Assembly: GCA_016839705.1 (NCBI GenBank)
Contig: JAEOTR010000003.1
Location: 1 to 61,308 of the forward strand
DNA from: Promethearchaeota archaeon
GTDB lineage: Archaea > Asgardarchaeota > Lokiarchaeia > Sigyniarchaeales > SOKP01
Direction of reading: 5' to 3'
Length of the DNA stretch: 61,308 nucleotides
In this document: in pieces, positions 31,727 to 61,066 of the stretch
How the letters are laid out: each line of letters opens with the position of its first letter
Position numbering within the stretch: the first letter of the stretch is position 1
The notes under the pieces: model-generated
The model's input: only the letters and a program-made list of their open reading frames with translations
Databases searched by the model: none
Told to the model about the DNA's origin: nothing
Position numbers and translations under genes: made by a program

Positions 31727-34700
31727 TTACTTTTTTGGTTTTTTCTTTTTTTGTTTTTCAGCTAAGCCTCTTTCTTCTAACAATGAATCTAAATCAGTTG
31801 TCTTTTTCGGTTTATCTTCTTTCTGCTCGATCTTTTTCTTAGGAATCTTTTTCTCTGGAGTTGGTTTTTTTAAGTCGGATACCATTATGTATTTTCCTTT
31901 TCTTGGTCTTCTTAACGGCACTTCTACAGGTTCTTCAATTCTTTTCCTCACTTTGCGAGCGTAAATTATTGCGAGAGCCCAAACAATAATGAAAATTGCA
32001 ATCATTAAAAACATGAACATCTCAATAAAGAAATCTAATATTGGAGGATCAAAAACACTGAAAGAAGATTCTTCGGAAAAAGTGAAATTTTCACCGGTAA
32101 TAACATTTTGGGCGGTTATTGTAAAATTTATTCGAAGGTGGCTGACTTCAGTCATAAAAATTTCAATCTCTATATCTGATTTATCACCAGAGGAGAGCCA
32201 ATTTAATTCAACGTAATTTACTTCGACAATTGAATACTCTAAATTATTCTCAATGTCTACAGTAATATCAAAAAGTCTTACGTTAGAGTCTCCAATATTG
32301 CTTAAACTATAAGTTATTGTTGTTAATCTATTTCTATATATAAATACATCATTCTGGCTAACTGAAATTGAAATGTCGGTGTCCTCATGAATAGTATTTA
32401 TAGAGAAATTCTCTGAAACACCGTTTATGATATCCCCCGCCCAAGATAATTTTAATAGTAAATCCCCTTCAAAATCGATAATCAAAGTGTCTATGATAAA
32501 CTTAACATAGCCATTAACATCAGTCACACCTGTGGCAATTTCAACCCATGAACTTGAGTCAAAGTACTCACAAGTGACGTTCTTATTTGACAATGCCTCT
32601 CCAAATTCAGTAGTTAACCTTGAACTAAAATTAATCGATTGACCTTTGATTGGGATGGTTGGATCAATCGTCATGTTTGTAAATTTGCTATTAAGCTTTA
32701 TGGAAAATTCATCACTGAATTGCTTATAACTGCTGACATAATTTTTATCAATGATATTTACTAAAAATGATGATTTATTTGGAAAGTACAAACATTCGTC
32801 TCTCTCAAATTCATATAGAATAATTCCACTTGTTATTTCTTCTGCAATTGTTAAACCAAGAATATTACCATCATAATTATCACTTGTCTTATTACTCAGA
32901 AGTGAGAATCTAGGACTTTTATAGACTCCCACAACAACGTCTTCGATATATAGAGTAATTATTGTTTTTGCCCCTCCTAATCTGATAGGTGCATTTACAC
33001 CAAGCCACGTTTTTGAAACAATATCTAAATTTGGTATTGTGAGATTTACATCAAATTCATGACTGTCATCTGGATGTCCAGAGAAATTTAATGTGACCGT
33101 GTTTGAAATATTTTCAGCGATTATCCAATCTTCATTAATATATGAAACTAATTGTGTATCTATTTTTACATCAAGAGGAAGAAAAGGATGGGTATTGTGA
33201 ATTGTTGTTTTAAAGTTAACAATTTCGTTTGGATTTAATATATCTTCGCTTTGTAGAAATGATTCTAATAAAAGAGATAGATCTTGTCCACCCAAATTAT
33301 AAGAGAATTCTTGTGTTAGATCGGAATTATTTATCGCATAAAAATTTGGAATAGGAATGCCTGTGGTATCATTAATTGAGGCAATTAATATGGTATAATT
33401 CCGAAAGACTTTATTATTTAATTTCCCAATAAGAGCATTCGTCCCTAGGTCTGAATAATAAGTTAAATTATATAACTCAAGATCATATAAATCGATATAA
33501 AGAGTGATTTTTTTGCATCCTAAGGCTGAACCGTTTAACCAAAAGAATCCTAATTCATATTCTCCAAAAGTAGTAACTGTAGCGCTTAATTCTAACAATA
33601 TAGCGTTATTGAAATCGTAAGATAATAGTGAACCATCAATAGAACCAGTTGAATTCACCAATTCTGCTCCAGGATATCTTGTACCATTTGGAAAAAAAAG
33701 CGTAGCATTCGCATCACCACTTATTGGGGCATTTAAATTTTGATCTTGTATGTCGAGACTAACTGAAATGTTATCTCCATACATGAAACCATTTGTTTCT
33801 GATAGAATTCCTTTATAATTAATATAACTATGCATTTGATGAATGAAATTATAACTAGTTAAATTGAGTGAGAAGGTACCATCAAGGGTAGTATATGTTT
33901 CATTAATTACTAATTTTAACTTATTATGCTGATCTGTTACAACAGATTCCTCTTCTAATAACCAGAGAAACTCTTCACTATTTGGTTTCGTGAGATTATG
34001 AGCATTCATATAATTCGGATAAACAAACCAGAATTCCTTGAAATCCCAATTATTAAATTTCGAGCTGGATTTATCAAAATCATACTCTAGAACCCACTCA
34101 GGATTTTCATTATAGGTTGCATTATATAAAGCTGTCGCACCCTCAATCCAATAAGCCACTATAGAATATGTAACATTGAATTTAAAACCCTCAATCACAC
34201 TTTTATTCCATTCTAAGTAGACTTCAAATTCATCAGTAGGAGTATCTTCAACGGGTGTGGTAAAATAATTATTCCATCGTCCCAATCCCCAAGTTAAATA
34301 AGAACTTTCATTATATGGAGATGAACTAATTTCTAAATTTTCTATCGTCATATCGTTAATTTTCAGGGTATTACTCCCTTCATATACAAAATCAGAGGGC
34401 ATATATCCTCTAGTGACATTCAACCTAAAAGGGCTGGCATCGAGTTGACTTGATGGATATGGTTCATTAGTAGTTTCTATTTGCTTTGTCGCTAATGACC
34501 AACTAAGTCCATCATTATTAGTAGTTATCAATTGGTGTTCAGTTATCCCATCAGCTGTAAAATCAGTATAGGGTAATGATACTAGACTATATACTTCATC
34601 GGAATTATTTGACTTTATCACAATAAAATAATTTGAAAGGTTCAAATTTTGAGTATTAGCTGTATTAAACTCAAAATAGGAGGTATTGTCTTTGGTATAA

Positions 34701-35848
34701 CTTGTGAATAAATTTGAATCAATCATCTCATTATAGTCTGGGTTTAATTGTGTACCTCGTAAATTCGCTTCAGTCCTAACTATGGTATCATCTGCTCGAT
34801 ACAGTGTGATATTGAGTTCTGTAGTTGCTGCTTTCGTCAAATCTAAGGTTCTTATCCAAGCATAAAATCCATTTACAGTAGTTTTTTCTCCCTTTAAATC
34901 GAATTCCAGAGCAACATAATCGTTATCTGTTATAGGTAAATCAAATGCATATGTTGATGATAATTCTAAATTATAGAAATGACCATCGAAAGGTGTGGTA
35001 TCTTTTCTCTCAAAAATGAATTGGAGATAACAAACATCAAATGTATCAATATAATTCAAGTTTTCATTTATAAATTTCCTTTGAATCTCCTGAATACCTA
35101 TACTACTACTAATAGGAATTGGATTTGTCAAGTTTACCCATGCTGGTTGTGAATCATCCCATATTCTTACTGTCAAATTTGCATCCTCATCAAGCTCAAA
35201 AAGTAAGGAGAGAATTAGAGCTAATATTTTCGTTCTATTAAATTCGACATTACCGTTGATTACCAATGGATTAGTATACACCTCATCAGTATAATTTGCT
35301 TTCACCGTAAAATTTAGTTTGCCATTATCTGCTCTTAACCATAGATTAGTTGAATTTGAGCTATCAACTAAGTCATTAAAAACACCGTCTATAGGCGATG
35401 TACTACTGGGGTCATAAGTATAGTTTGAATAAGGTTGATTTTCGTTAAAGTCAAAGGAAATGAAATCAGCAGCATCTAGACCACTATCATCTTCAAGGAT
35501 ATAATCTGTAGTAAAATTACTTTGAAACGTAAAATTGAAATCACCATAAGTGAGAAACATATCGTCTGAGGGAATAGAGGGAATTTCAAAAAACTCTTCA
35601 TTATCATTTAAATTACTAGATTCATTATTTACATAAATTCTAACATCCTGCTCATCCCCATTACCAACAATATAATCATCTAAATCAAGATTAGAGGTAT
35701 TTGGAAAATCTTCTAGATCTTTAATTTCATTACTATTTTCTCTTATCAAATTAGGATAGAATAAGAATTGTATATTAGATAATAAAATAAATGAAGTAAA
35801 AATTACGACAACTGCTATTCTTTTAATCTCTTTTTTTTGTCGAATCAA
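31727..35848 (-). CDS. Large cell-surface glycoprotein with C-terminal TM and Lys-rich cytoplasmic tail
   Basis: N-terminal hydrophobic segment, acidic beta-rich ectodomain with many NxS/T sequons, TM MFLMIAIFIIVWALAIIYA, basic tail. Confidence 0.75.
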   Translation of the reverse strand: MIRQKKEIKRIAVVVIFTSFILLSNIQFLFYPNLIRENSNEIKDLEDFPNTSNLDLDDYIVGNGDEQDVRIYVNNESSNLNDNEEFFEIPSIPSDDMFLTYGDFNFTFQSNFTTDYILEDDSGLDAADFISFDFNENQPYSNYTYDPSSTSPIDGVFNDLVDSSNSTNLWLRADNGKLNFTVKANYTDEVYTNPLVINGNVEFNRTKILALILSLLFELDEDANLTVRIWDDSQPAWVNLTNPIPISSSIGIQEIQRKFINENLNYIDTFDVCYLQFIFERKDTTPFDGHFYNLELSSTYAFDLPITDNDYVALEFDLKGEKTTVNGFYAWIRTLDLTKAATTELNITLYRADDTIVRTEANLRGTQLNPDYNEMIDSNLFTSYTKDNTSYFEFNTANTQNLNLSNYFIVIKSNNSDEVYSLVSLPYTDFTADGITEHQLITTNNDGLSWSLATKQIETTNEPYPSSQLDASPFRLNVTRGYMPSDFVYEGSNTLKINDMTIENLEISSSPYNESSYLTWGLGRWNNYFTTPVEDTPTDEFEVYLEWNKSVIEGFKFNVTYSIVAYWIEGATALYNATYNENPEWVLEYDFDKSSSKFNNWDFKEFWFVYPNYMNAHNLTKPNSEEFLWLLEEESVVTDQHNKLKLVINETYTTLDGTFSLNLTSYNFIHQMHSYINYKGILSETNGFMYGDNISVSLDIQDQNLNAPISGDANATLFFPNGTRYPGAELVNSTGSIDGSLLSYDFNNAILLELSATVTTFGEYELGFFWLNGSALGCKKITLYIDLYDLELYNLTYYSDLGTNALIGKLNNKVFRNYTILIASINDTTGIPIPNFYAINNSDLTQEFSYNLGGQDLSLLLESFLQSEDILNPNEIVNFKTTIHNTHPFLPLDVKIDTQLVSYINEDWIIAENISNTVTLNFSGHPDDSHEFDVNLTIPNLDIVSKTWLGVNAPIRLGGAKTIITLYIEDVVVGVYKSPRFSLLSNKTSDNYDGNILGLTIAEEITSGIILYEFERDECLYFPNKSSFLVNIIDKNYVSSYKQFSDEFSIKLNSKFTNMTIDPTIPIKGQSINFSSRLTTEFGEALSNKNVTCEYFDSSSWVEIATGVTDVNGYVKFIIDTLIIDFEGDLLLKLSWAGDIINGVSENFSINTIHEDTDISISVSQNDVFIYRNRLTTITYSLSNIGDSNVRLFDITVDIENNLEYSIVEVNYVELNWLSSGDKSDIEIEIFMTEVSHLRINFTITAQNVITGENFTFSEESSFSVFDPPILDFFIEMFMFLMIAIFIIVWALAIIYARKVRKRIEEPVEVPLRRPRKGKYIMVSDLKKPTPEKKIPKKKIEQKEDKPKKTTDLDSLLEERGLAEKQKKKKPKK

Positions 35849-37393: not shown

Positions 37394-38575
37394 GTGCCAG
37401 AGATAAAAATTGAGGATACAGTAATTTTACTTGATACTTCACGATCAATGCTCAGAAAAGATTTTAAGCCAAGTCGATTAGCTGTAGGACTCCACACTGT
37501 GAAAAACTTCATCCAATCCAAATTATCCATCGACTTGAAAGATAGAATTTCAATAATTTCCTTTGGGGATACCACACATAAATTAATTAATTTTGCATTT
37601 GAGGAAGAAAAATTATTAAATTCTCTAAAAAAGATTCAAATTTCTGGTAGGGGTATATTGCATGAAGGTATTGCTTTTGCCTTACAAATTCTTGTTGAAG
37701 AAATGCGTAAAATTGGGGGAAAAGTCCCTAGAATTTTCATAATAACAGATAACAAATTAGTTTTTGATAAAGATCGTTTAGATAAAATGGTAAACATTGC
37801 AAAGGGGTTGGGTGTTTATATCGATGTTTGTCAGTTAGGAGGAATTCAAGGATACGAGGAAGATAAATTGAAAAGAATTACCCAATTAACAAGAGGAAAA
37901 TTTGGATTTTACAATAATACTAAAGAAATTATTAATGCCGGGAAGGTATTTGCGTCAAAAAAAGAAATACGAGAAACGACTGATTATTTTTCACCAGAAA
38001 AAAAAGTAGATATTGCCCCCTTAGTAAGTGAAATTGCTTTACCATTAAGACGCCCACATGTATTAGAAATGAAGTTAATGATGAGCGGAAAGGGTAAGGG
38101 AGAAGAAAAGTGTAATATTTGTCATTCTGTTAAGTCCCCAATAACGAGCTCTGATTTCTATTCCGAGGGTAGATATTGCCCCTCATGCGATAGAGCCATG
38201 CACTTATCATGCGCTGCAATGTGGGCAAAAAAAACAGAATATAAAGAAAATGTATTTCGTTGTCCATTTTGCTTTTTTTTATTGGAATTACCAAGAGCCG
38301 CCCTTAAATTCGCTCAGGATAGGGATGGAGAAACTTCAGAGATAAAGATAATTGAAGAAGATGAAGGAAAAGAAGCAAAGATGATACAAATCTCACAAGA
38401 AAGCGTCAGTCAAATTGATGCCTCATGCTCATATTGCCATAGTATTTTTTTAGGAGATTATAAAGTTTACCAATGCAATAAGTGTGGCTCATATTATCAT
38501 AAACCTTGTTTAGGCAAAATGATTAATGAAATTAGCGCATGCAGAAATTGTGGTGCTAAAATCATATCTAATTAA
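37394..38575 (+). CDS. VWA domain + two RING/C1-like zinc fingers (TFIIH p44/Ssl1-like architecture)
   Basis: LLDTSRSMLRKDFKPSRL (DxSxS MIDAS); CNIC..CPSC..H..C..CPFC and CSYC..CNKC..H..C..CRNC. Confidence 0.75.
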   Translation: MPEIKIEDTVILLDTSRSMLRKDFKPSRLAVGLHTVKNFIQSKLSIDLKDRISIISFGDTTHKLINFAFEEEKLLNSLKKIQISGRGILHEGIAFALQILVEEMRKIGGKVPRIFIITDNKLVFDKDRLDKMVNIAKGLGVYIDVCQLGGIQGYEEDKLKRITQLTRGKFGFYNNTKEIINAGKVFASKKEIRETTDYFSPEKKVDIAPLVSEIALPLRRPHVLEMKLMMSGKGKGEEKCNICHSVKSPITSSDFYSEGRYCPSCDRAMHLSCAAMWAKKTEYKENVFRCPFCFFLLELPRAALKFAQDRDGETSEIKIIEEDEGKEAKMIQISQESVSQIDASCSYCHSIFLGDYKVYQCNKCGSYYHKPCLGKMINEISACRNCGAKIISN

Positions 38576-40728: not shown

Positions 40729-42003
40729 TCATAATTTCAATGAAAATAAGGGATTTAAACGAGCAACAATTTCTCCTAAGTTTAACTGGAGTGTTTTTAA
40801 AATTACGTCTCTTCCTCTATATTCAAATTGTAATTCCCCTACATTTCTAATTATTTTTAACCTACTTGTATTTGTTTTTAGTGAAGTTACAAAATACCTT
40901 TGATGTTTATACTCCAAAATATCTAATACATCCTCAATATCTGTTAGTTCATACCCTCCACCATGAGGGAGGAGATAGGCATTAGTCAAGGTATCAACTA
41001 GCTCTAAATTTTCTGCTCTTCCTAGAAACTTCTCATTTCTTAATGTAGTCATTGAAAAACTTTTTTTCCCTCTAAATAGATAAGCAGAAATATCTGCTCT
41101 TAATGTTGTTGGAAATATATCCGAAGTAATAATGCTACAACTAGTATCCGTACAATTGCTTCCTAAGTACATGTTATTATAGTCTTTAAGAAATTGATGG
41201 GGTTGGTTACAAATTATATCGTATCCATAATCAAAAAGTTTACTTGCAATTATCTCTCTTTTTGAATTAGAGAATTTTAAAGCTTGGTTATGAATCTTAA
41301 GAAAAGATTTTGCTTCAGAATCCAGTAAAATATATTGTTTCCCAAGTTTAGTATTTACTTCTACTGATTGCTCTTTCAGTAATTTAGATTTATCAATATA
41401 AAGCCCCGCACCATATTCATTATCGTCTCGAAATTCGGGAGCGGAACCATGAATCAAGAAAATATAAGGTGGAAGGTCTAAATCCGATAAATTCTTTGTT
41501 TCAAAACAATTAATGAAGTGATTAGATATTCCATAATCCCAATTTATCAGAATATCACTATGATAGAGCTCAGTGGATTTAACATCATCTATCTTTTTGA
41601 TTAAGTCGTAAGGATCTGGTACCTCTTTTAATCCTCCAACAAGTAATCCACAACAATTGGGCTTTACGTTTAAAAAAATAATTGTTTCCCCTCCTTCCCC
41701 CCAATTTAAGCGACCCCCGTATCCTAATCCAGAATTCCATCGAAATTTATTTCTCGATATTGTTTCATCTGGAGAACTAATAAATGTTGCTTTTGGTTCA
41801 AATCCGTATTTTTCTTGGATAAGATGCATTTGAGCAAGTCCATATTTCATATTTGCTTTACATAGTTTAGATGCACCATCATTCAGACCTGTGGAAAAAA
41901 TGAATTGATTTGCTCTATCTAATAAATCCAATTTTGTTAGCTCAGAAACTTTTTGGGTTTGAGATGATATTCGCATTTTAACTAGTATTCCGGATAGAAC
42001 CAA
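40729..42003 (-). CDS. Divergent RtcB-like protein
   Basis: SPD, GYGG, PNCCG, SNHF, IHGS, QPHQ and PHGGG occur in the order of the RtcB metal and GMP ligands. Confidence 0.55.
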   Translation of the reverse strand: MVLSGILVKMRISSQTQKVSELTKLDLLDRANQFIFSTGLNDGASKLCKANMKYGLAQMHLIQEKYGFEPKATFISSPDETISRNKFRWNSGLGYGGRLNWGEGGETIIFLNVKPNCCGLLVGGLKEVPDPYDLIKKIDDVKSTELYHSDILINWDYGISNHFINCFETKNLSDLDLPPYIFLIHGSAPEFRDDNEYGAGLYIDKSKLLKEQSVEVNTKLGKQYILLDSEAKSFLKIHNQALKFSNSKREIIASKLFDYGYDIICNQPHQFLKDYNNMYLGSNCTDTSCSIITSDIFPTTLRADISAYLFRGKKSFSMTTLRNEKFLGRAENLELVDTLTNAYLLPHGGGYELTDIEDVLDILEYKHQRYFVTSLKTNTSRLKIIRNVGELQFEYRGRDVILKTLQLNLGEIVARLNPLFSLKL

Positions 42004-51097: not shown

Positions 51098-51334
51098 TTA
51101 TTTTACAGCTTCAAAATATATATACCATATTTCGTCATCATCAAGGTATTCTGTTCCTAAATGTTTGTGCTTTGTTTTAGCCAAATCTCGTGGGACAGAC
51201 TCACTTGCAGGTTTATAATCTGTAATGACTTTTAATACTGTTCCAGGTCTCATTTTCATGAGTTGTTTTTTAGTCTTTAAAGCAGGAACAGGACATACAA
51301 GTCCACAGGCGTTTAATTCCATATCAAATTTCAT
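51098..51334 (-). CDS. tusA: TusA-family sulfur carrier
   Basis: LNACGLVCPVP..KTKK.L..M.PG.VLKVITD. Confidence 0.85.
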   Translation of the reverse strand: MKFDMELNACGLVCPVPALKTKKQLMKMRPGTVLKVITDYKPASESVPRDLAKTKHKHLGTEYLDDDEIWYIYFEAVK

Positions 51335-51364
51335 GATTTTTACCTCTTTAGTATTTTTTCGTTT

Positions 51365-53836
51365 TTATTCACATATTAAACTAAATATTGGTTCGTCCAT
51401 TTCAGGATCAACATTCATCTCAACTTGCATTAATTGTGTCAATCGAAGGGCTTCATAGCGTACTTTTGTAGCTTCTAAGTTTAAGTTTTTTGCCATATTA
51501 CTTATAGTCGTTGGTCCTTGAAGAGTAATATAATCTAAGACTTGTTGTCTTGGTGTTTTTTCAAATGTAAGGAGTTCGCGTTTAGATTTAAGATTGATTG
51601 CTTCATTAATTACCTCCTCGTTTACTTTTCCCTCTTCAAATAATCCCTTATTAATTGCATCATCTAAAATTTCTTTTCCTTTATCAGTCCACGCAACTAT
51701 TGTAGTATATCCTTTTTCAGAACCAACTTCTCCGGCAGTTATATCAGAATAAATGGCAGGAAAATCTTGACAGTGAGAACAGAAATTATTACAACTTAAA
51801 CATCTACGTGCTTCTTGTAGTGCCATATCTTCATTAAATTGGTGTTCGATCTCTTCAAAACTCCACGCTATTTCTTGAGTAGCTTCTTCTAAAGTTTCAG
51901 GCTTTGGTGAATAATCTTTTGGGGGTTTTTTTGGGCCAGTAAAGAACATTCTATTTTGCAGATACCTTCCCTCCATTAAATCTTCACCTTTAAGATACCT
52001 ATCAATTGAAAACGCCGCTTCTTTTCCATGAGCTATTGCAGCAATTGCCACTGCTTTTGAGTTATTAATAATATCTCCTCCCGCAAATACTCCTGGAATG
52101 TTTGTTTCAAAACTGATCTCGTTAACTTTTATTTTATTGTGTTCTTTTTCTAGTTTATTCTCAGTCGCAGCATCAATTTGATCAAAATCAACAGCTTGAC
52201 CAACAGCAATTACAATCGAATTGGTTACAATTTCATATTCTGAATCTTTAACCTTATTTATCGGTCTTTTTCCATTTTCATCAGGTGATCCCCATTCTAT
52301 TTTATAGGAGTTTAGCACTAAATTACCATCGGTATTTTGAGTAATTTTAGATGTTGAGGTAGTGAAATGATATTCCATAAATTCAAGCTCATTTTCCGGT
52401 ATTTCTTTTAACACTAATTCAAGTTGTTCTTCTGTCATGATATCAACAAGATGAACTTTAGCTGCACCTAATCTGAGAGCTGTTTGAGCTACATCAACAG
52501 CAACCGGACCACCACCAATTATTCCTACTGTTTTGTCTTTAAATTCTTCATTATTTTCCCAGTACCTGTACTTTCTATCCATAAGAAATGTAATTGCAAC
52601 ATGAACATTAGGAAGCTCCTCTCCCTCTAAATGTAAAGTTCGTGGTTTATATTGTCCTGTTGCGATAAAAATTGCTTCAAATCCATCATTTTTTAAATCA
52701 TCAAGAGTCATTTCAGGTCCTAATGGTTTATTCAAGACTATTTCTACTCCTGAATTTTTAATCATGTTAACGTCATAATCTAATACATAATTTGGTAATC
52801 TAAATTGTGGTACACCGAATCTTAGCATCCCTCCGGTCTGATCAGTCTTTTCAAATATAGTTGGAACATATCCCATCCCTCGCAAGAAATATCCCGCGGT
52901 TAATCCAGCTGGACCTGCCCCAATAATTGCCACTTTTTTAGCATTCTTCTTAGTTTTAATTGTAGATTTTGACTTGGATTTGATATCCTGTTTAATCTCC
53001 CATTCGGTAACAAATTTCTTTAATTCCCGAATTGCAACTGGATGGTCATTACCTATCAAAGTACACCCATGCTCACATTCATTAGTACAAATTCTTCCAC
53101 ATATCGATGGAAGCGGGTTTGCTTCACGAATTAAATCTACAGCATCTTGATACTTACCTTGCCTAATCAAAGAAATATATCCTTGGGCATTTACTCCTGA
53201 TGGGCAACCATTACAGCATGGTGAGCATGCTAATCCTCTATCAGTATGCTCTGTTCGCATTTGAGAATTACAGAATAAGCCAATTTTCAAGATTTCTCTA
53301 TTCATCTCTTCCTCTAATTCAGCAGCACCTCTCATTTCACATGGGACACCAACAATCCCTACCGGTTCAAAAGTTTTTCCTACTAGATCTACTAATTTTT
53401 GTAGAACGCCTGAACGTCCATAAACAACACCTGCCTTATTTACGACATCATCTGGATCAGAAACTGTATCTGCTTCCGGTTTATCATCAGTATCTTGAAC
53501 CATCACAATTTCAGCGAGTGATTGCGTATCAAGTAGTTCCTTTGCTAGGGTTGTAACCACACCACCATTAGCCGCTTTTGCTAATATTTCAGGATTTTTA
53601 CTTCTTAATGAATAAATCGCTTTCGGTTGTTTTTGCTTAAATTTTTTCTGAATAACTTGAGGACAATCTTGGTAACATTTTCCGCAATCTTGCCCATTTC
53701 TTTCAAGGATACAAAAATCTTTTAGTGTTGGTCGTAGTATATCCATTTGTATATGCTTACATGAACCAGCACACAATCCACATCCTTGACATAATCCAGT
53801 TTCAATAATTTCTTTTTCTAATAATTCAAAACTCAT
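51365..53836 (-). CDS. Chimeric flavoprotein: ferredoxin + FrhB-like domain interrupted by a GltD/NfnB-like FAD/NAD module + C-terminal winged helix
   Basis: GGVVT, GIVGVPCE, IGLFC (FrhB); insert PC..GCP, NPLPSICGRIC, GAGPAG, GVPQFRLP, GGGPVAVD, FAGGD, EARRCL; FrhB resumes at CSHCQDF..YSDITAG.VGS.KGYTTIV. Confidence 0.8.
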   Translation of the reverse strand: MSFELLEKEIIETGLCQGCGLCAGSCKHIQMDILRPTLKDFCILERNGQDCGKCYQDCPQVIQKKFKQKQPKAIYSLRSKNPEILAKAANGGVVTTLAKELLDTQSLAEIVMVQDTDDKPEADTVSDPDDVVNKAGVVYGRSGVLQKLVDLVGKTFEPVGIVGVPCEMRGAAELEEEMNREILKIGLFCNSQMRTEHTDRGLACSPCCNGCPSGVNAQGYISLIRQGKYQDAVDLIREANPLPSICGRICTNECEHGCTLIGNDHPVAIRELKKFVTEWEIKQDIKSKSKSTIKTKKNAKKVAIIGAGPAGLTAGYFLRGMGYVPTIFEKTDQTGGMLRFGVPQFRLPNYVLDYDVNMIKNSGVEIVLNKPLGPEMTLDDLKNDGFEAIFIATGQYKPRTLHLEGEELPNVHVAITFLMDRKYRYWENNEEFKDKTVGIIGGGPVAVDVAQTALRLGAAKVHLVDIMTEEQLELVLKEIPENELEFMEYHFTTSTSKITQNTDGNLVLNSYKIEWGSPDENGKRPINKVKDSEYEIVTNSIVIAVGQAVDFDQIDAATENKLEKEHNKIKVNEISFETNIPGVFAGGDIINNSKAVAIAAIAHGKEAAFSIDRYLKGEDLMEGRYLQNRMFFTGPKKPPKDYSPKPETLEEATQEIAWSFEEIEHQFNEDMALQEARRCLSCNNFCSHCQDFPAIYSDITAGEVGSEKGYTTIVAWTDKGKEILDDAINKGLFEEGKVNEEVINEAINLKSKRELLTFEKTPRQQVLDYITLQGPTTISNMAKNLNLEATKVRYEALRLTQLMQVEMNVDPEMDEPIFSLICE

Positions 53837-53838
53837 AA

Positions 53839-55074
53839 TTATCCCTCTGTTATTTTAACTTCTTTAATTACTCCTTCAGAGTCTATACTATATTCTACAG
53901 AACCGTTTTTATAGGTCCCCTCTACCACTTCAAAAATGTGGGTTTTATAATCATCAAAATTATCATTATCATCTATTTGCGATTTGAATCCACCAAAAAA
54001 TATGTTGGAAAGGTTCATATTCCCTGCAATTTGACGAATTTCTTCCGTGATTTCTTTATATTGTGTCGCATCTTCATTCTCTATTGCCTTTTGAAGTCTT
54101 TCTTCTAACTTTAACAGCTCCTCTCGATATCTTTTTGTTTGTTCACTGACTTCAATTTGATTTGCTTTTTCATATGTTTCAATGATCTTAAGAGTAAGTG
54201 AAATTGATTTCTCACCACCTAATAATCCCGTTATTAAGGGTAATTCTTCAATCAATCGTCCTGAAAATAAATCTTCTAAGAGAGATCCTGAAGAGGGAAT
54301 CCTTCCTTTAGGTAAACCAGATGTTGGCAATGTAAATCTAAAGAAATTCCCTAAAATATCAGGTAGACTTCGAGTGACATCATCCTCTTCATCAGCTAAT
54401 TTATCTGTCGCTCCTTTTTCAGAATGCTCCGTAGCAACTTCAATATTTCCCATAAGAGTTCCAAACATTCCTAACATACGGATACCAGATCTTTCTACTA
54501 ATTCTTTACAGCCCCTACATGGTGTATTGTAATTAATACATCTTTCTTTACATTCACGAGAGACAAAACCATTACAGAGAAATCCTAAGTCATTAAAACA
54601 TGTTTCTTCATCTTCAAGCTCAATTTGACGATGTACTTCATCCAAGTAATCACAGGTGGCTCTTCTTGTGCATAAATCACATAACTTTTTCGGTTTCTTT
54701 GGTACCTCTTCATTAATTACTGAAAGTAATTCATCGATTTCTCCTAAACATCCTTCCACTTCAATGACATCATTATCGAAAGTTCTTAAGGGAGTAACTT
54801 CATGGCCATGCTGGTTTGCTAACGCAAAAACTCCACCGGTGACTGTACAACTCCCATACGCAATAACTTTTTTCGCATTTGATCTTATTTTAAGTACCTG
54901 TTCCTTATCATTCGGTAATAAATATCCTGTTAATACAGCAGTTTCTATTTTTTCTTCTTTCCAGTTTTTAGGATCTTTTATATATTCAACATTATATTCT
55001 GAATTTAATTTCAACAGTAAGGATTCATTAAAACATTTATTACATCCATTAAATTGAAAAATTTTAACATCCAT
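53839..55074 (-). CDS. MvhG/FrhG-like Fe-S subunit with helical C-terminal extension
   Basis: GCNKC, AYGSCTVTGGV, EGC, LCDLC, CF...G.LC.G, C...C....PCRGC. Confidence 0.75.
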   Translation of the reverse strand: MDVKIFQFNGCNKCFNESLLLKLNSEYNVEYIKDPKNWKEEKIETAVLTGYLLPNDKEQVLKIRSNAKKVIAYGSCTVTGGVFALANQHGHEVTPLRTFDNDVIEVEGCLGEIDELLSVINEEVPKKPKKLCDLCTRRATCDYLDEVHRQIELEDEETCFNDLGFLCNGFVSRECKERCINYNTPCRGCKELVERSGIRMLGMFGTLMGNIEVATEHSEKGATDKLADEEDDVTRSLPDILGNFFRFTLPTSGLPKGRIPSSGSLLEDLFSGRLIEELPLITGLLGGEKSISLTLKIIETYEKANQIEVSEQTKRYREELLKLEERLQKAIENEDATQYKEITEEIRQIAGNMNLSNIFFGGFKSQIDDNDNFDDYKTHIFEVVEGTYKNGSVEYSIDSEGVIKEVKITEG

Positions 55075-55516
55075 CTTTTATCGTACCCTCCTCTTTAATA
55101 GCATTTGATAATCGCTCTACAATATCTTCAAAATCTCCTACAGAAGTCTCTCCTTCAGCAGCTCTAGAGGTATATTGATTTACGAATTGATCACTATATC
55201 CTAATTCTTTGAATACTTTTTTCATAAGTTTGATTCTGTGCATTGATAAGATGTTTCCGTTAAAGAAATGACACGCACCTAAACAACATCCCACACATGC
55301 TACTGCATCAGCACCATTATTTAAAGCATCCATTATTTGTGTAGGTCCAACCTGACCAGTACATTGAACTCGAATAATTCTAATCGCTGGGTCATATGCC
55401 ATTCTTGCAACTCCTGCTGTATTTGCCGATCCCTGACCACACTCGTTACACATGAAAACTACTAAATTCTGAATCTTCTCTCTAATATTTTCATCTATAG
55501 TTTCACAGTCACTCAT
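55064..55516 (-). CDS. mvhD: MvhD-like [2Fe-2S] subunit
   Basis: FMCNEC, IRIIRVQCTG, GADAV..VGC..G.CHFFNGN; ATG at 55516 overlaps the hdrA TGA. Confidence 0.9.
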   Translation of the reverse strand: MSDCETIDENIREKIQNLVVFMCNECGQGSANTAGVARMAYDPAIRIIRVQCTGQVGPTQIMDALNNGADAVACVGCCLGACHFFNGNILSMHRIKLMKKVFKELGYSDQFVNQYTSRAAEGETSVGDFEDIVERLSNAIKEEGTIKDGC

Positions 55517-57543
55517 TCGCAAATAGCACCTCCGCCAGATACGGCAATTATTTCATCTAACAATTGATCATCACTAAAATTTATTAATTGAATTGCTCCT
55601 GTAGGACATGCCGGCATACACATACCGCACGATTTACATGCAATCTCATTTACAGTTGGTACTCCATTTTCATCAATATCAATAGCTGCTGGAGCGCATA
55701 TGGTTTTACAAAGTCCACAATTTACACATAAATCATAATCGATTGAAGGCACTAACATTTCTTTTTCAATGTAACCCTTAACTAAGGGGGCAGCAGCTAA
55801 CGCAGCAGCACTTCCAGCATGAGCTACGGTTTCAGAGATGTCTTTAGGCCCTTGAATTGTACCTGCAAGAAAAACTCCTCCCTTACTACTTAACGTAGGA
55901 TTCATCTTGATATGGAATTCTTTTAAGAAACCTTCTTTTGATCGTAATATATGAAGCTTAGAGCCAAGTGGACCAATTCCTTCTGGAGGAACCATAGCCG
56001 CAGAAAGTACTACTAAATCCGCCTTCAGTTGTAAAGGAGTTTGAGTTAGCGTATCTTCAACAATGACATTTAATTCACCCGAAATTGGGTCTTTAACGAT
56101 TTCTGATGGTCTTCCGCGTATAAATCTGACTCCAATTTCTTGGGCCGATTTATATAATTCTTCAAAGTTTAATCCAGGTGTTCTTACATCAATATAACAA
56201 ATCGAAACATCAGTTTCAGGATACATTTCTTTAATAATTCTCGCATTTTTGATTCCGAATTTACAACATACACCCGTACAATATTTATTCCCGACTTGGT
56301 CGTTTCTACTTCCTACGCATTGAATCATAACAACACTCTTAGGAATTTTCCCATCAGATGGTCGTAATACTTGACTATTAGTCAACGAAGTTGGTGATAA
56401 CATCCGCTCTAGTTTTAATTGGGTAATAACATCTTCATACCCTTCTTGATTGTAATGATACGGTTCAATTTCACTCGGATCATATTCATCAAATCCAGCA
56501 GCAACTATGATTGAGCCAACTTTTACGGTTTTTGTCTCCGCTTCCATAGAAAAATCGATTGCTTGAACAGGACAAATGTTAATACATGTATTACATTCAA
56601 TGCAATTTTTTTTATCTCTCACGTATGTCGCTGGTATCGCTTGAGGATAAGCCTTATAAATAGCATTCCTCATCGACATCCCCTTATCCCATTCGCTTGG
56701 TACTTCTACAGGACAGTGGGCTGCGCATTCTCCACAAGACGTACAATTATCTTTCACGTATCTTGGTTTTATTTCAATTTCAACTTCAAAATTGCCTAAT
56801 GAACCATCTACAGTCTTAATTTGAGCGTTGGTATAAAGTTCTATTAACGGGTGGTTCGCAACTCCATTTGTTAGTGGTGAAATTGAACACTGTGGACATT
56901 CTAAAGTTGGGAATGTTTTATTTAATCGAGTCATATGTCCTCCTATAGTAGAATTTTTTTCTACTAAAACTACAGGAATTCCTAATTCTGCCATGTCATA
57001 AGCTGATCTAAGACCAGCGATTCCAGCTCCGATAACCAATGCTTTTTTAGTCGTGGGTACTCTTCTCGTTTCAACATCTTCTAATTTTCTCGATCTATTT
57101 ACCCCAGCTTCAACTAATCTCATGGCTTTTTCAGTTGCTTTTTCTTTTTCTTTTTGATGAACCCAACTATCGTATTCTCTCACATTAACTTGCTGATGAC
57201 GATGTTTGTTCAATCCAACTTCTTCAATAGCTTTAGCAAAAGTCCTTCCATGTTGATTTTTTGAGCATGACGCAACCACTGTTCTATTAACTCCCAATTC
57301 TTCAATTGAATCTTTAACCATCTGTACTCCCGGTTTGGAACACATAAACATATAATGCTCAGCCTTTACCACGTTTGGTAATGTTGAAGCATAGTCCGCA
57401 ACTTTAGCAACGTCCACAGTGCCGGCAATGTTATGTCCACAGTGACACACGAATACTCCTATTCGTGGTTCTTCGTCTTCTCCAGTCTCAACCTTTTCCC
57501 CTAAACGTTCGGTTTCCTTAACTTTTCCTTCTTTTACAGTCAA
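55513..57543 (-). CDS. hdrA: Heterodisulfide reductase subunit A
   Basis: IGVFVCHCG.NI, GAGIAG, KTFPTLEC..C, inserted ferredoxin, QCVGSR, YCTGVCC, GPKDI, C-terminal ferredoxin; start moved to the TTG at 57543 after GAGGAGG. Confidence 0.95.
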   Translation of the reverse strand: MTVKEGKVKETERLGEKVETGEDEEPRIGVFVCHCGHNIAGTVDVAKVADYASTLPNVVKAEHYMFMCSKPGVQMVKDSIEELGVNRTVVASCSKNQHGRTFAKAIEEVGLNKHRHQQVNVREYDSWVHQKEKEKATEKAMRLVEAGVNRSRKLEDVETRRVPTTKKALVIGAGIAGLRSAYDMAELGIPVVLVEKNSTIGGHMTRLNKTFPTLECPQCSISPLTNGVANHPLIELYTNAQIKTVDGSLGNFEVEIEIKPRYVKDNCTSCGECAAHCPVEVPSEWDKGMSMRNAIYKAYPQAIPATYVRDKKNCIECNTCINICPVQAIDFSMEAETKTVKVGSIIVAAGFDEYDPSEIEPYHYNQEGYEDVITQLKLERMLSPTSLTNSQVLRPSDGKIPKSVVMIQCVGSRNDQVGNKYCTGVCCKFGIKNARIIKEMYPETDVSICYIDVRTPGLNFEELYKSAQEIGVRFIRGRPSEIVKDPISGELNVIVEDTLTQTPLQLKADLVVLSAAMVPPEGIGPLGSKLHILRSKEGFLKEFHIKMNPTLSSKGGVFLAGTIQGPKDISETVAHAGSAAALAAAPLVKGYIEKEMLVPSIDYDLCVNCGLCKTICAPAAIDIDENGVPTVNEIACKSCGMCMPACPTGAIQLINFSDDQLLDEIIAVSGGGAICE

Positions 57544-57544
57544 G

Positions 57545-58462
57545 TTAAATTGCCTCCTCTTCTTTTTGTACTTCTTCTCCCCCAAAAATATACTCCTTAC
57601 CCATTAATTGGTATTGAAGACCAACAAACTCTTGATCCATACCCATACAATAAGCAGTAAGTTGAGAGAGATGAATAACTGGATAATCATAATTACATTC
57701 TTTATTTTTATTTAGATAATCCTGACCCGTCTCATATTGTAAATGACAAAATGGACAGATGTCAAGTATAAAGTCAGGTTTCACTTCATCAATATTCTTC
57801 ATCTTTTCTCCGAAAATCGTCATACTTGCAGTTCCATCGTATGCTTTTACTCCTCCACCAGCACCGCAACATGTAAGTTGCTCTTTGAACCTAACAGATT
57901 CAATACCTAATGCTTCCACGAATTCTTCTATGATTGTTGGCCCTTCAGAACTTTCAATTTCTCTAATCCTCGTAGGCTTTAAGAAATGACATCCATAATG
58001 TATCGCTGCTTTTGCATTTAATTTTCTGACTAATAAGTCTTCTATTCCCCATGGTCCAACTTCATAACCTAATACTTCAGCTACATGTCTTACATCAATT
58101 GTTCCTTTAAATTCATAATCTCCGATTAGTTTCAATCTTTCATTGACCATTTCTCGATGCTCTTCATTTCCCTTTAAGTATTTGTTGACTTCTTGAAGTG
58201 TACCAAAGCATCCATTACATACTGTTAGTATATCTGCATCTAATTGTTCTGCTATACATAAATTTCTTGCAGCTGAAACCATCCAATCAACCTTGTTAAA
58301 AGATCGAAAGACTCCCGGAGCTGGACAACATGTTGCCCTTTCCATGTCTAGAAGGTCATAACCTAACTTATCCATAACATATTTAGTTGCTTTCTCTATT
58401 GCTGGATACCGATTTGGCATCAGACATCCCAGAAAGAAAGCAAATGTATTATCTTTTACCAT
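57545..58462 (-). CDS. hdrB: Heterodisulfide reductase subunit B
   Basis: FLGC, TCCPAPG, TVCNGC, HYGCH..KP, CCGAGGGV, CPFCHLQ: both CCG domains intact. Confidence 0.95.
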   Translation of the reverse strand: MVKDNTFAFFLGCLMPNRYPAIEKATKYVMDKLGYDLLDMERATCCPAPGVFRSFNKVDWMVSAARNLCIAEQLDADILTVCNGCFGTLQEVNKYLKGNEEHREMVNERLKLIGDYEFKGTIDVRHVAEVLGYEVGPWGIEDLLVRKLNAKAAIHYGCHFLKPTRIREIESSEGPTIIEEFVEALGIESVRFKEQLTCCGAGGGVKAYDGTASMTIFGEKMKNIDEVKPDFILDICPFCHLQYETGQDYLNKNKECNYDYPVIHLSQLTAYCMGMDQEFVGLQYQLMGKEYIFGGEEVQKEEEAI

Positions 58463-58474
58463 AATAATTTCCTC

Positions 58475-59017
58475 CTACTTTTCCTCTTCCTCCTCTTCAG
58501 GAGGTAAATCAAAAAAATTCTTTTTTATTTTATCTAAATCATTATCTTCTTCCTCCTTATACTTAAACATTGTAGGAGGAAGTTCGTCTAAACCTAATTC
58601 AACTCTTCGTTTTCTTACTTCGTCATTTATGGGTACCGCATGACCAAAATTCTTTAGATACCCAACAACGGCTCTATGATTTTTCGAAATATTGCCTAAT
58701 TTTGTAGCATAATTTCTGAGCTCCATTATCACATCAGTTGGCCGAACATCCCTCGGACATCGTTCATAACATTGATAACATGTAGTACAAAGCCAGATAT
58801 CAGGATCTTTTAATACTGATAAATCTCCCAAGACAACTTTTCTAATAATCGATCGAGTTTTTAAGGCAGTCCATCTACCACTTTCGCAACTTGCCGTACA
58901 TGTCCCGCATTGAATGCACTGCCAGATATTAGATTTTCTCTCAATATTCTTAAAAAATTCTTTATCAAAATCTTCGTCTGTCTTAAATTCCCTTGCCTCT
59001 TCTTTTACATCAGACGT
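58475..59017 (-). CDS. hdrC: Heterodisulfide reductase subunit C (apparent ACG start)
   Basis: Frame extends 62 codons upstream of the ORF-track start and adds WQCIQCGTCTASC to WLCTTCYQCYERCPR; it begins ACG TCT GAT after AAGGTGA and in-frame TGA TAA. Confidence 0.9.
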   Translation of the reverse strand, partial: TSDVKEEAREFKTDEDFDKEFFKNIERKSNIWQCIQCGTCTASCESGRWTALKTRSIIRKVVLGDLSVLKDPDIWLCTTCYQCYERCPRDVRPTDVIMELRNYATKLGNISKNHRAVVGYLKNFGHAVPINDEVRKRRVELGLDELPPTMFKYKEEEDNDLDKIKKNFFDLPPEEEEEEK

Positions 59018-59076
59018 TTATCATCACCTTTGCTTGAAATTAAAAAAAAAAAAATTGTGTTTATTAGTTATTTATT

Positions 59077-59508
59077 TTATAGTGAGACTATTCTTCCGCC
59101 TTCACTCATTTCTAAAAACGATGCGGCACCAACAGGGTCTTCGGCTTCTTCGATTATATCTTTATGTTTAATTCCCATTAATTGCATGGTCATTTCACAT
59201 GGATATAACTTCATATTGCCATTTTCAATTGCTTCCTTAATTAAACCCCATGGATCTTCAATTCCAAATTTCTTTAGCCTTTTGGTAAACATTTTCGCTG
59301 CCATACCCTTCATTGGGAAAGGCATTCCAGCAACCTTTGGTTTTTTACCTTTTTTCAAAAGCTCTAAACCCCAAAAAGTAAAGAAAAAGTTCATTTTCAT
59401 ATCCATAGCGTCTCCCGTTGTACCAAGGATCATCATCATTGCGAATTTTTCGAATGACTTATCCTTAACAATAAAATTTATTGTTCCGTTTCCATTATTT
59501 TCAGCCAT
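59077..59508 (-). CDS. DsrE2-like (DsrE/DrsE family) sulfurtransferase
   Basis: FFTFWGL.LLKK, LYPCEMTM.LMG, GAASFL; ATG at 59508 after AAGGTGG. Confidence 0.85.
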   Translation of the reverse strand: MAENNGNGTINFIVKDKSFEKFAMMMILGTTGDAMDMKMNFFFTFWGLELLKKGKKPKVAGMPFPMKGMAAKMFTKRLKKFGIEDPWGLIKEAIENGNMKLYPCEMTMQLMGIKHKDIIEEAEDPVGAASFLEMSEGGRIVSL

Positions 59509-59614
59509 ACTTTCCACCTTTTTTCGAAAATTTGGTTTTTTATTTTATTTTATTATTTTTTTCTATTTTTGACGTCAAAAAATTGACCATTATTTTTTTA
59601 AAATTTTTGTTAAC

Positions 59615-59956
59615 CTACATCCACGATATAACTTTTGGGGTATTGTCGATAATATCTATAAGATCATCGTATTCTATTGATTCCACCTTCTTATGAATAA
59701 ATTCTGGTCTAATTCCGCGTGAGATAATATCTCCAATCATCGCAAATACAACAATATCTAAATTAAGGAGCTCTTCCATCAGTTTTGGTATTGTTCCCAT
59801 TGTTGATATTCCTATTACTCCATCCTGAATTAAAACTAACCCAAGTTTCGTGTCTTTTTTGAGTTGACTTTTTAAAATTGGTAATAATCTTCTTAGATGA
59901 TTCCCTGTCATTTCACTAAATCCAAATAAGTATATTACATCAAGTTTGTCTGCCAT
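59615..59956 (-). CDS. DsrH/TusB-like sulfur relay protein
   Basis: VLIQDGV, D..SRG, I.YDDLID.I....VISW. Confidence 0.8.
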   Translation of the reverse strand: MADKLDVIYLFGFSEMTGNHLRRLLPILKSQLKKDTKLGLVLIQDGVIGISTMGTIPKLMEELLNLDIVVFAMIGDIISRGIRPEFIHKKVESIEYDDLIDIIDNTPKVISWM

Positions 59957-59971
59957 TTTTTTTATCCTCCA

Positions 59972-60340
59972 TTAATATCTAAAAGTTGTATCTGCATTTT
60001 CTATTAAATCCGTTAATTCGTCGTAATTAATGACTTTCAAATTCTCATATTCCACTAAATCATCCTTCGTCATACCCGCATCTTTTAATGCAGATTCGAT
60101 AATATACACCTCTAAATCAGACAAATCCGCAATTTCCAACACTTCATCCAATGAATCCATTCCCACTGTTTCCGGATTACAACTCTTATTAAATAAATAT
60201 ACCGCATTACCCGTAAGTACGATTTTACAATCTATATGTTCTCCTAATGCTGTAAATCCAGATCCAATTCGAATTGCTTCAATTGCCGAATTTTTCCCAA
60301 TTGGGGATTGATCACTTATAATCACTACAGATTCTATCAT
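59972..60340 (-). CDS. DsrF/TusC-like sulfur relay protein
   Basis: SPIG...A.EAIR, GNAVY, VY..ESAL...G, LIENAD. Confidence 0.75.
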   Translation of the reverse strand: MIESVVIISDQSPIGKNSAIEAIRIGSGFTALGEHIDCKIVLTGNAVYLFNKSCNPETVGMDSLDEVLEIADLSDLEVYIIESALKDAGMTKDDLVEYENLKVINYDELTDLIENADTTFRY

Positions 60341-60346
60341 AGTTTT

Positions 60347-60715
60347 TTAACCACCTGCTCCAAACACAATCATTTTATCAGCATTTATTGCCCAATTTGA
60401 AAAATCTCCTAATCCTTCCTCAGTTGCCCCTTCAATGAATTCTTGTTCTTTTAAACCTGTTATACTCACCCATGTACTACAACCTGCAACTGGAATATTG
60501 TTTTCAGTGCTAAATTTCTCAATTTTCTCAGGTATATTTCTTATCGAAGTTCCACAACTAATCTCTTTCTTTAGATTGTAGACACCAGTTCCGAAGAAAA
60601 ATATTCCACCTATTTCATTCCCCTTTCGAAGTACTGCTTTTCCCATTTCTACCAAAGTATCAACAGCTTGGTACTTGTAAGGTTCAGTGCTAATAAAAAA
60701 TACATATTTAGCCAT
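60347..60715 (-). CDS. DsrE/TusD-like sulfurtransferase
   Basis: PY, A.LRKG, IFFFGTGVYN, AGCST (conserved Cys), GL.D......ADKMI.F; start at ATG 60715. Confidence 0.8.
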   Translation of the reverse strand: MAKYVFFISTEPYKYQAVDTLVEMGKAVLRKGNEIGGIFFFGTGVYNLKKEISCGTSIRNIPEKIEKFSTENNIPVAGCSTWVSITGLKEQEFIEGATEEGLGDFSNWAINADKMIVFGAGG

Positions 60716-60743
60716 AGTTTTACTTAACTCCGTGTTATATGTT

Positions 60744-60968
60744 TTAACCCTTCTTAATAACAAAAATTAAATTGCCGTTATCTTCCCTAAGCTCAACTAA
60801 TTCATTCCCAGTTTTATTCAACATTGCAGGAATATCTTTTTTAGCTCCAATGTCATCAACAACTACTTCGATAACTTGCCCCGAAGTGAAGTTTTTCAAC
60901 TCTTTCTTCGTTTTCAATACCGGCATTGGACATCTCAAGCCAGTAAAATCAAATGTTTTTTCAACCAT
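60744..60968 (-). CDS. tusA: TusA-family sulfur carrier
   Basis: D.TGLRCPMPVLKTKKEL...GQVIEVV.DD.GAKKDIP. Confidence 0.9.
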   Translation of the reverse strand: MVEKTFDFTGLRCPMPVLKTKKELKNFTSGQVIEVVVDDIGAKKDIPAMLNKTGNELVELREDNGNLIFVIKKG

Positions 60969-61066
60969 TTTATTCAACCTTTTTAGTTTTTTTTTCTAGT
61001 TTTTTGAATTTAATATTAAATTAAATTACAAATTGAAACTCTTTATAGATAAAAAATATAAAATAG

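Follow-up and report, generated by a model that had tools for sequence, protein, structure and literature searches.

Based on sequence comparison, predicted structures and gene-order analysis of a 61,308-nt contig from a Lokiarchaeia genome (the contig, analysed entire, is here called the window; the genome assembly spans 3.36 Mb, is 93% complete and carries 6.8% contamination), we propose that a twelve-gene cluster couples a heterodisulfide reductase (Hdr) to protein-borne sulfur through the following mechanism. The block from hdrC to tusA2 would form a soluble, hydrogenase-free Hdr complex, in which the flavin of a GltD-type module oxidises NADH derived from amino-acid fermentation. Electrons would then pass through FrhB and its ferredoxin clusters to the three clusters of MvhG, held in place by a dead MvhA stub, and onwards via MvhD to the flavin of HdrA, where they would be bifurcated to ferredoxin and, via HdrC, to HdrB. 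In conjunction, HdrB would reduce sulfane sulfur (persulfide or short polysulfide) with release of sulfide, the sulfur being brought by TusA2, its dedicated carrier, and by proteins of the DsrE type, and collected and supplied by an Lrp-controlled tusA1-dsrEFH-dsrE2 block with further outlets. This NADH-fed, bifurcating reduction of TusA/DsrE-borne sulfur is the model we favour ahead of its rivals, held tentatively and at somewhat less than even confidence.

The original prediction, made from the letters of the window alone, listed twelve co-oriented genes with named families, and both the open reading frames (ORFs) and the family assignments agree with it. The genes lie on the minus strand from 60977 to 51098 (Table 1), with spacers of -41 to 106 nt (28, 6, 15, 106, 59, 12, -41, -10, -11, 2 and 30 nt in succession from tusA1 to tusA2), and the contig ends 331 nt upstream of tusA1. 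In Pfam/NCBIfam scans the relay genes match TusA, DsrE, DsrE/F, DsrH and DsrE_2, with scores under the TusBCD cutoffs, and the Hdr genes match CCG (twice, the two domains expected of HdrB), HdrA, FlpD, Oxidored_q6 and FrhB_N + GltD-type + FrhB_C; HdrB is above the cutoff of the methanogen-type model TIGR03288. The cysteines said to be kept, those of both CPxP motifs, DsrE (C79) and DsrE2 (C104), show no variation across 45-59 orthologues.

We consider the hydrogenase-free architecture of the complex highly probable. As judged from profile and fold comparisons, the 'mvhG-like' gene encodes MvhG fused to a nickel-less remnant of a [NiFe] hydrogenase large subunit: the first 255 residues of the 411-aa protein correspond to MvhG and retain every cluster cysteine, the MvhG fold being the top Foldseek match, and residues 265-411 of the predicted model align with FrhA (6QGT; Z 12.5, 2.5 Å, 145 residues) and also with NuoD of complex I. 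Profile alignment of the remnant with 51 MvhA sequences (hhalign) gave a probability of 92.7%, compared to 0.2% for the reversed control. The nickel-binding RICGIC motif of MvhA stands opposite GLLGGE in the remnant, and the domain in the window contains no cysteine. Pairwise BLAST of the remnant against VhuA returned no match, so that profile and fold comparison were required. Hence, the noted absence of mvhA from the window stands for an active large subunit, but not for the vestigial one within the mvhG-like ORF.

The hydrogenase-less reading does not extend to the genome, as an intact NiFeSe hydrogenase, VhuG-VhuA-VhuU(Sec), is encoded at a second relay-linked hdr locus on contig C70 (L002 8635-16784). 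There, hdrB-hdrC-vhuU(Sec, DCULSCAAH)-vhuA-vhuG, with an extended vhuG of 440 aa, lies back to back with tusA-yeeE-dsrE-dsrF-dsrH-hypE-hypD-hypF; together with the window locus, this makes two links between sulfur carriers and Hdr in the genome. One relative (L192 6347-20000) carries dsrE/F, dsrE2 and tusA1 within a different Hdr cluster with tandem multi-domain hdrA genes, a third, independent carrier-Hdr association. The C70 hydrogenase, and the closeness of HdrA and HdrB to the methanogen enzymes, would suit an ordinary Mvh-Hdr complex that recruits a distal MvhA/VhuU and reduces CoM-S-S-CoB, with the relay genes as chance neighbours. However, the dead remnant occupies the large-subunit position in cis, mcrA and comA were not found in the 93%-complete genome, and the linkage of relay and hdr genes is kept in three classes through rearrangement; this explanation is thus largely refuted by synteny and appears extremely improbable.

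The donor end is the variable part of the system, while Hdr and carrier form the constant part. An ENF motif and a GKGK-like loop lie at the F420 access channel of FrhB (PMC3591093), and the Methermicoccaceae copy, the only one with this region intact, keeps both. In Thorarchaeia the F420-access sheet is deleted, and in most Lokiarchaeia it is replaced by a GltD/NfnB-type module, as alignments place the insert in the FpoF/Fsr-type FrhB of the window. The module has the fingerprint V-D-I-M, where NADPH-type relatives have Y-R-R, and an acidic residue at such a position usually indicates NADH. The fingerprint is compatible with NADH as the predicted donor, and the module is a candidate NADH-type donor site. 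F420H2, initially offered as an alternative, is an unlikely donor here because GltD replaces the F420-access sheet and has an NADH-type fingerprint. The module has been lost again in two Lokiarchaeia genomes, and Harpocratesius and the lineage of locus L099 retain just a ferredoxin with a winged helix, FrhB::GltD being shortened to 142 aa in Harpocratesius. In loci L022 (4094-5500) and L035 the GltD domain is deleted, and a second, C70-type hdrC-hdrB pair follows tusA2; the short FrhB of these loci was considered as an ancestral form and rejected, as GltD scars remain.

The ligands of both noncubane [4Fe-4S] clusters are present in HdrB, where C13/45/46/82/85 and C158/H159/C198/199/236/239 align to 5ODC chain B and are invariant. 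A Glu/Lys pair of HdrA reportedly serves the bifurcating flavin; its counterparts E393/K446, aligned to E356/K409 of 5ODC chain A, are conserved in 65/65 sequences, in keeping with a bifurcating HdrA. The original prediction noted the absence of dsrAB, dsrC and lbpA from the window, and searches of the 93%-complete genome turned up no mcrA, comA, dsrC (PF04358), sulfite-reductase domain or second GcvH (LbpA); the single GcvH-family gene lies on C88, away from the cluster. Since mcrA, comA and dsrC are missing from these results, the known HdrB substrates appear to be absent, and carrier-borne sulfur is, in our view, rather likely the direct or near-direct substrate of HdrB. The genome further encodes F420 ligase, one TtuA/TilS-family gene and three cysteine desulfurases. 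A complex prediction of HdrB with TusA2 scored 0.01 and was used as evidence neither way.

Alternatively, the same complex may turn over a small-molecule disulfide or persulfide (CoA-, cysteine- or sulfonate-based), which TusA2/DsrE would load or recycle. Of the arginines that bind CoB in methanogen HdrB (PMC13261682), R14 is kept, R201 is replaced by K and R240 by T (V in Methanobacteriales). Every HdrB of the relay clade has R or K where class I methanogens have G49, as do certain HdrBs from other non-methanogens. E87 and H154 of the proton path are also retained, and methanogen Hdr accepts several anionic CoB/CoM analogues (PMC13261682). From these alignments the pocket appears neither to confirm nor to exclude a small anionic substrate. 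However, comA and mcrA were not found, and a small molecule alone leaves unexplained why one specific TusA is co-inherited from Lokiarchaeia to Methermicoccaceae; we regard this explanation as unlikely, if still deserving of attention.

The predicted linkage of sulfur-relay and hdr genes holds in Lokiarchaeia, Thorarchaeia and Methermicoccaceae, although gene order has been shuffled. A full-length orthologue of the MvhG-remnant fusion is found in 72 of 161 Lokiarchaeia genomes, compared to a normal [NiFe] large subunit in 152, and the system is therefore accessory. Gene order is kept in 60 fetched loci, and tusA-dsrE-dsrF-(dsrH)-dsrE2 precedes hdrC in all 43 with enough upstream contig; the host genomes include P. 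syntrophicum MK-D1 (DSAG12_01139-01151), Harpocratesius repetitus and one closed 6.04-Mb genome. Beyond Lokiarchaeia, a homologous core occurs in seven Thorarchaeia genomes, in Methermicoccaceae metagenome-assembled genomes and in the L099 lineage, usually with a DsrE-like gene before hdrC (before hdrA in the L099 lineage) and TusA2 after frhB, and with dsrEFH, where present, downstream. TusA2 and/or DsrE adjoin hdr in 6/7 Thorarchaeia loci, the seventh being interrupted by a contig end, and, in differing orders, in two Methermicoccaceae-type loci and the L099 lineage. In an HdrB tree that is without bacterial Flx-Hdr and sHdrB sequences and a formal rooting test, the relay-cluster HdrBs fall into a single clade (99/97) that excludes class I methanogens as well as the other HdrB paralogues of the genome. 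A metagenome scan returned mostly ordinary MvhG and one new informative locus.

Several of these loci have features of their own. The two Methermicoccaceae-type loci (L098 5334-12629, L179 8711-15943) carry the module with an intact F420-type FrhB, so that the module is not restricted to Asgard archaea. Locus L099 (352-6982) reads dsrE-hdrA-mvhD-fusion-ferredoxin/wHTH-tusA2-tusA::dsrE2 fusion, with a divergent HdrD-like gene replacing hdrCB. In Harpocratesius (L005 14414-16989, L193 3690-6156) a cysteine desulfurase, an extra TusA and a ThiF/MoeB-like gene stand between dsrH and dsrE2.

As judged from gene content and order, the cluster consists of two modules, an upstream tusA-dsrEFH-dsrE2 block that is separable and a last TusA that is co-inherited with the Hdr arm, so that a single twelve-gene unit, as originally read, is doubtful. 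The T-run noted at ~59042-59054 on the minus strand is indeed present (13 T, 59054-59042), is conserved at the dsrE2-hdrC junction in relatives and is not due to chance, because none of 492 comparable genome spacers has at least 13 T and 1% have at least 10 T. In the three closed genomes an Lrp gene lies at the T-run point; in most others it is divergent and upstream of tusA1. Over the 161 Lokiarchaeia genomes, which as relatives are non-independent samples with a patchy pattern within two large genera, TusA2 and the fusion occur together in 69, the fusion only in 3, TusA2 only in 9 and neither in 80. In five of six inspected TusA2-only cases the gene adjoins frhB::gltD, generally at the end of a contig. 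After deletion of the hdr block only pieces of TusA2 persist; three of four lack CPxP, and in two genomes they come directly after dsrE2. Separation of relay from hdr in relatives, named at the outset as grounds for abandoning the idea, was thus found in part for the upstream block and not for TusA2. A DsrC-like, two-cysteine TusA2 was considered and rejected, as MK-D1, most Thorarchaeia and Methermicoccaceae have no C10. On transcription, coverage of the region in an MK-D1 RNA run is flat and DNA-like, and published values of 182-348 reads per kilobase per million (RPKM) for DSAG12_01139-01151 are like those of neighbouring genes, neither proving co-transcription; a sediment RNA contig from an MK-D1 relative, spanning tusA1 to the hdrC start, gives a weak hint.

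Conservation is much stronger in TusA2 than in TusA1, and TusA2 invariably comes after the ferredoxin/winged-helix gene, including cases in which that gene is cut to 130-142 aa. These features would also suit a structural or cluster-maintenance partner, acting in noncubane assembly or repair or as a redox sensor with the winged helix, with an HdrB substrate unrelated to the relay, and the C70 locus likewise sets tusA-yeeE-dsrEFH beside the maturation genes hypEDF. However, methanogen Hdr and the hdrB loci on C13 and C32 of this genome are without an adjacent TusA, so noncubane clusters are not generally TusA-dependent, and we judge this role improbable.

Several observations weigh against the favoured model. 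The genome is incomplete and contaminated to the extent given above. The strong T-run divides the relay block from the hdr block, and the upstream block, or tusA1-dsrE2, occurs without adjacent hdr in eight fusion-less genomes, one of them closed. HdrB retains two basic CoB-pocket residues, suiting a small anionic substrate. The TusA cysteine sits at a helix cap and not on a flexible arm as in DsrC, and may therefore have difficulty reaching the noncubane clusters. GltD is absent in Harpocratesius, two other Lokiarchaeia and all Thorarchaeia, so NADH is not a general donor. Finally, NADH bifurcation to persulfide is uphill at standard state and marginally feasible at or below 1 mM sulfide: textbook potentials give an estimate of ~-250 mV for persulfide at standard state and ~-160 mV at 1 mM sulfide, where NADH (~-290 mV) could just reduce ferredoxin to ~-420 mV.

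With bifurcation only marginally feasible, the reverse direction stays a real rival. In such confurcation, reduced ferredoxin and sulfide or thiol would yield NADH and carrier persulfide for Fe-S, thio-tRNA and cofactor synthesis, a reaction estimated to be downhill at standard potentials. Flx-Hdr has been proposed to reverse during fermentation (PMC10920352), and the desulfurase, ThiF/MoeB-like and extra TusA insert of Harpocratesius ties the relay block to biosynthetic sulfur. On the other hand, the three cysteine desulfurases are already able to make persulfide, and LbpA, DsrAB and DsrC for further sulfur oxidation were not found in the 93%-complete genome. Moreover, fermenting Lokiarchaeia need NADH sinks rather than sources. 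Confurcation is therefore considered unlikely, and the complex probably runs in the reductive direction, as in the favoured model.

In comparison to characterised systems, the cluster would work like Flx-Hdr with DsrC and is built like Elp-Hdr, but falls outside Flx, Elp, sHdr and Mvh-Hdr on the features compared. HdrA, HdrB, HdrC and MvhD are close homologues (E ~1e-192, 1e-89) of those in class I methanogen HdrABC-MvhAGD (5ODC/5ODR, 8RVU, 9SFI), with all cluster ligands present; here, however, MvhA is a cysteine-free stub on MvhG instead of an active [NiFe] large subunit, FrhB::GltD is added and the cluster includes sulfur carriers. A nickel-free arm is also present in Elp-Hdr of Methanothermobacter marburgensis (PMC12350162), where HdrA receives electrons via an MvhD homologue from a dead large subunit together with a flavoprotein of the FrhB family. 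Elp originates from FdhAB and transfers electrons from F420H2 to CoM-S-S-CoB, whereas the present arm derives from MvhAG, has no FdhA/FdhB homologues and has GltD in place of the F420-access sheet, without an intact F420-binding FrhB subunit. FlxABCD-HdrABC of Desulfovibrio and other anaerobes is an NADH-fed bifurcating Hdr proposed to act on DsrC (PMC10920352), and the window cluster, known from its genes, resembles it in the proposed use of a protein sulfur carrier. It differs in having GltD within FrhB plus MvhG instead of an FlxABC module, no FlxA/B/C genes being in the cluster, and TusA/DsrE instead of a DsrC/DsrAB route, DsrC not being found in the genome.

The sHdr-LbpA system likewise clusters an Hdr-like complex with TusA and DsrE bearing active cysteines, and its TusA pulls down sHdrB subunits (PMC11094781). 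As predicted, the layout here is unlike it: one hdrCB pair and a full-length 690-aa HdrA, of which sHdrA (6TJR) matches only residues 354-601, replace the C1B1AHC2B2 order, no LbpA is found in the cluster and the host is an anaerobic fermenter. The type II DsrEFH/YTD cluster (PMC13293266), which co-occurs with reductive DsrAB and passes sulfur to DsrC, shares the tusA + dsrEFH (+ yeeE) relay seen at C70, but DsrAB and DsrC were not found here.

The idea of a persulfide substrate for Lokiarchaeal Hdr is already in print: a 2025 preprint on Nerearchaeum marumarumayae (bioRxiv 10.1101/2025.07.22.663070) proposes reduction of TusA/DsrE-bound persulfides, the donor being H2 through a group 3c hydrogenase. 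Orthologous loci, LOKIASV2_09800-09920, appear in its Data S5 with the fusion called plain MvhG; in the passages located the FrhB::GltD gene is not listed and the linkage not discussed. A search that covered few subscription papers found no literature on the fusion of MvhG to a dead large subunit, the donor series or a dedicated TusA.

The cluster provides a candidate for the Hdr substrate in archaea without methanogenesis; models of eukaryote origin build on the metabolism of Asgard archaea. It singles out one carrier (TusA2 C14), one donor (NADH) and one enzyme, all occurring in cultured strains and small enough for expression. If the model is right, Lokiarchaeia can use sulfane sulfur as a sink for NADH and regain ferredoxin, without depending solely on H2 transfer. 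A hydrogenase would have turned into a metal-free wire, as also happened in Elp-Hdr and complex I, and three states of the donor end can still be seen. It is possible, although we lean against assuming it, that the relay-linked complexes constitute a distinct bifurcating-Hdr clade with TusA-bound persulfide as dedicated substrate, in which the decayed hydrogenase is a plug-in wire and the donor end has been swapped: F420 in Methermicoccaceae, bare or ferredoxin-only in Thorarchaeia and Harpocratesius, and NADH in most Lokiarchaeia. Such a clade would provide Asgard archaea with a sink for electrons that is linked to sulfur and produces reduced ferredoxin as well.

Table 1 Features of the sulfur relay-Hdr cluster in the window, in gene order.
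Feature	Position	Strand	Remarks
tusA1	60744..60977	-	Sulfur carrier, CPxP (C16); variable, 42-87% identity; in separable upstream relay block
dsrE/tusD-like	60347..60715	-	C79 invariant, 46 orthologues
dsrF/tusC-like	59972..60340	-	C38 kept in 46/48
dsrH/tusB-like	59615..59956	-	No cysteine
dsrE2-like	59077..59508	-	C104 invariant, 53 orthologues
13-T run	59042..59054	-	Terminator-like; at least 7 T in nearly all short dsrE2-hdrC spacers of relatives
hdrC	58475..59017	-	Two [4Fe-4S] motifs; ACG start, GGTGA Shine-Dalgarno site
hdrB	57545..58462	-	Class-I-methanogen-like; all noncubane ligands present; CoB site partly altered
hdrA	55513..57585	-	Full domain set, 690 aa; start codon uncertain
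mvhD	55064..55522	-	[2Fe-2S] connector
MvhG::large-subunit remnant	53839..55074	-	13 conserved Cys, three clusters; predicted Ni-less remnant at ~residues 265-411, nt ~54282-53842
FrhB::GltD	51365..53836	-	2x[4Fe-4S]-FrhB; GltD/NfnB-type FAD/NAD(P) module inserted at ~residues 190-685; C-terminal winged-helix-like domain
tusA2	51098..51334	-	CPxP (C14); highly conserved, 70-95% in Lokiarchaeia; co-distributed with Hdr arm

The start of hdrC is unusual. The gene is without ATG: an in-frame stop is followed by ACG (59017-59015, minus strand) behind the GGTGA site. This start is common to 13 relatives, with ATG in others (L023-L029, L031, L034, L035, L037, L038, L042 and L043 carry ACG), and the position reads ATA in loci L012, L014 and L015. 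The non-canonical ACG may lower HdrC translation.

Elsewhere in the genome, contigs C1, C3, C13, C15, C32 and C81 hold at least five HdrB-type and at least nine HdrA-type modules, and several hdrA genes look split or frameshifted. C3 encodes a 920-aa HdrC-like::GltD fusion, the GltD part of which is 54% identical to the insert in the window, and the C32 hdr locus has an apparent Flx-like tail. Within the window, two large ORFs of 1373 aa and 424 aa (31727-35848 and 40729-42003, minus strand) are without a Pfam match, and a 1830-aa ORF lies at 19102-24594 (plus strand). At 37394-38575 (plus strand) a VWA domain is joined to C1/PHD-like zinc fingers in an Ssl1/p44-like, eukaryote-like architecture.

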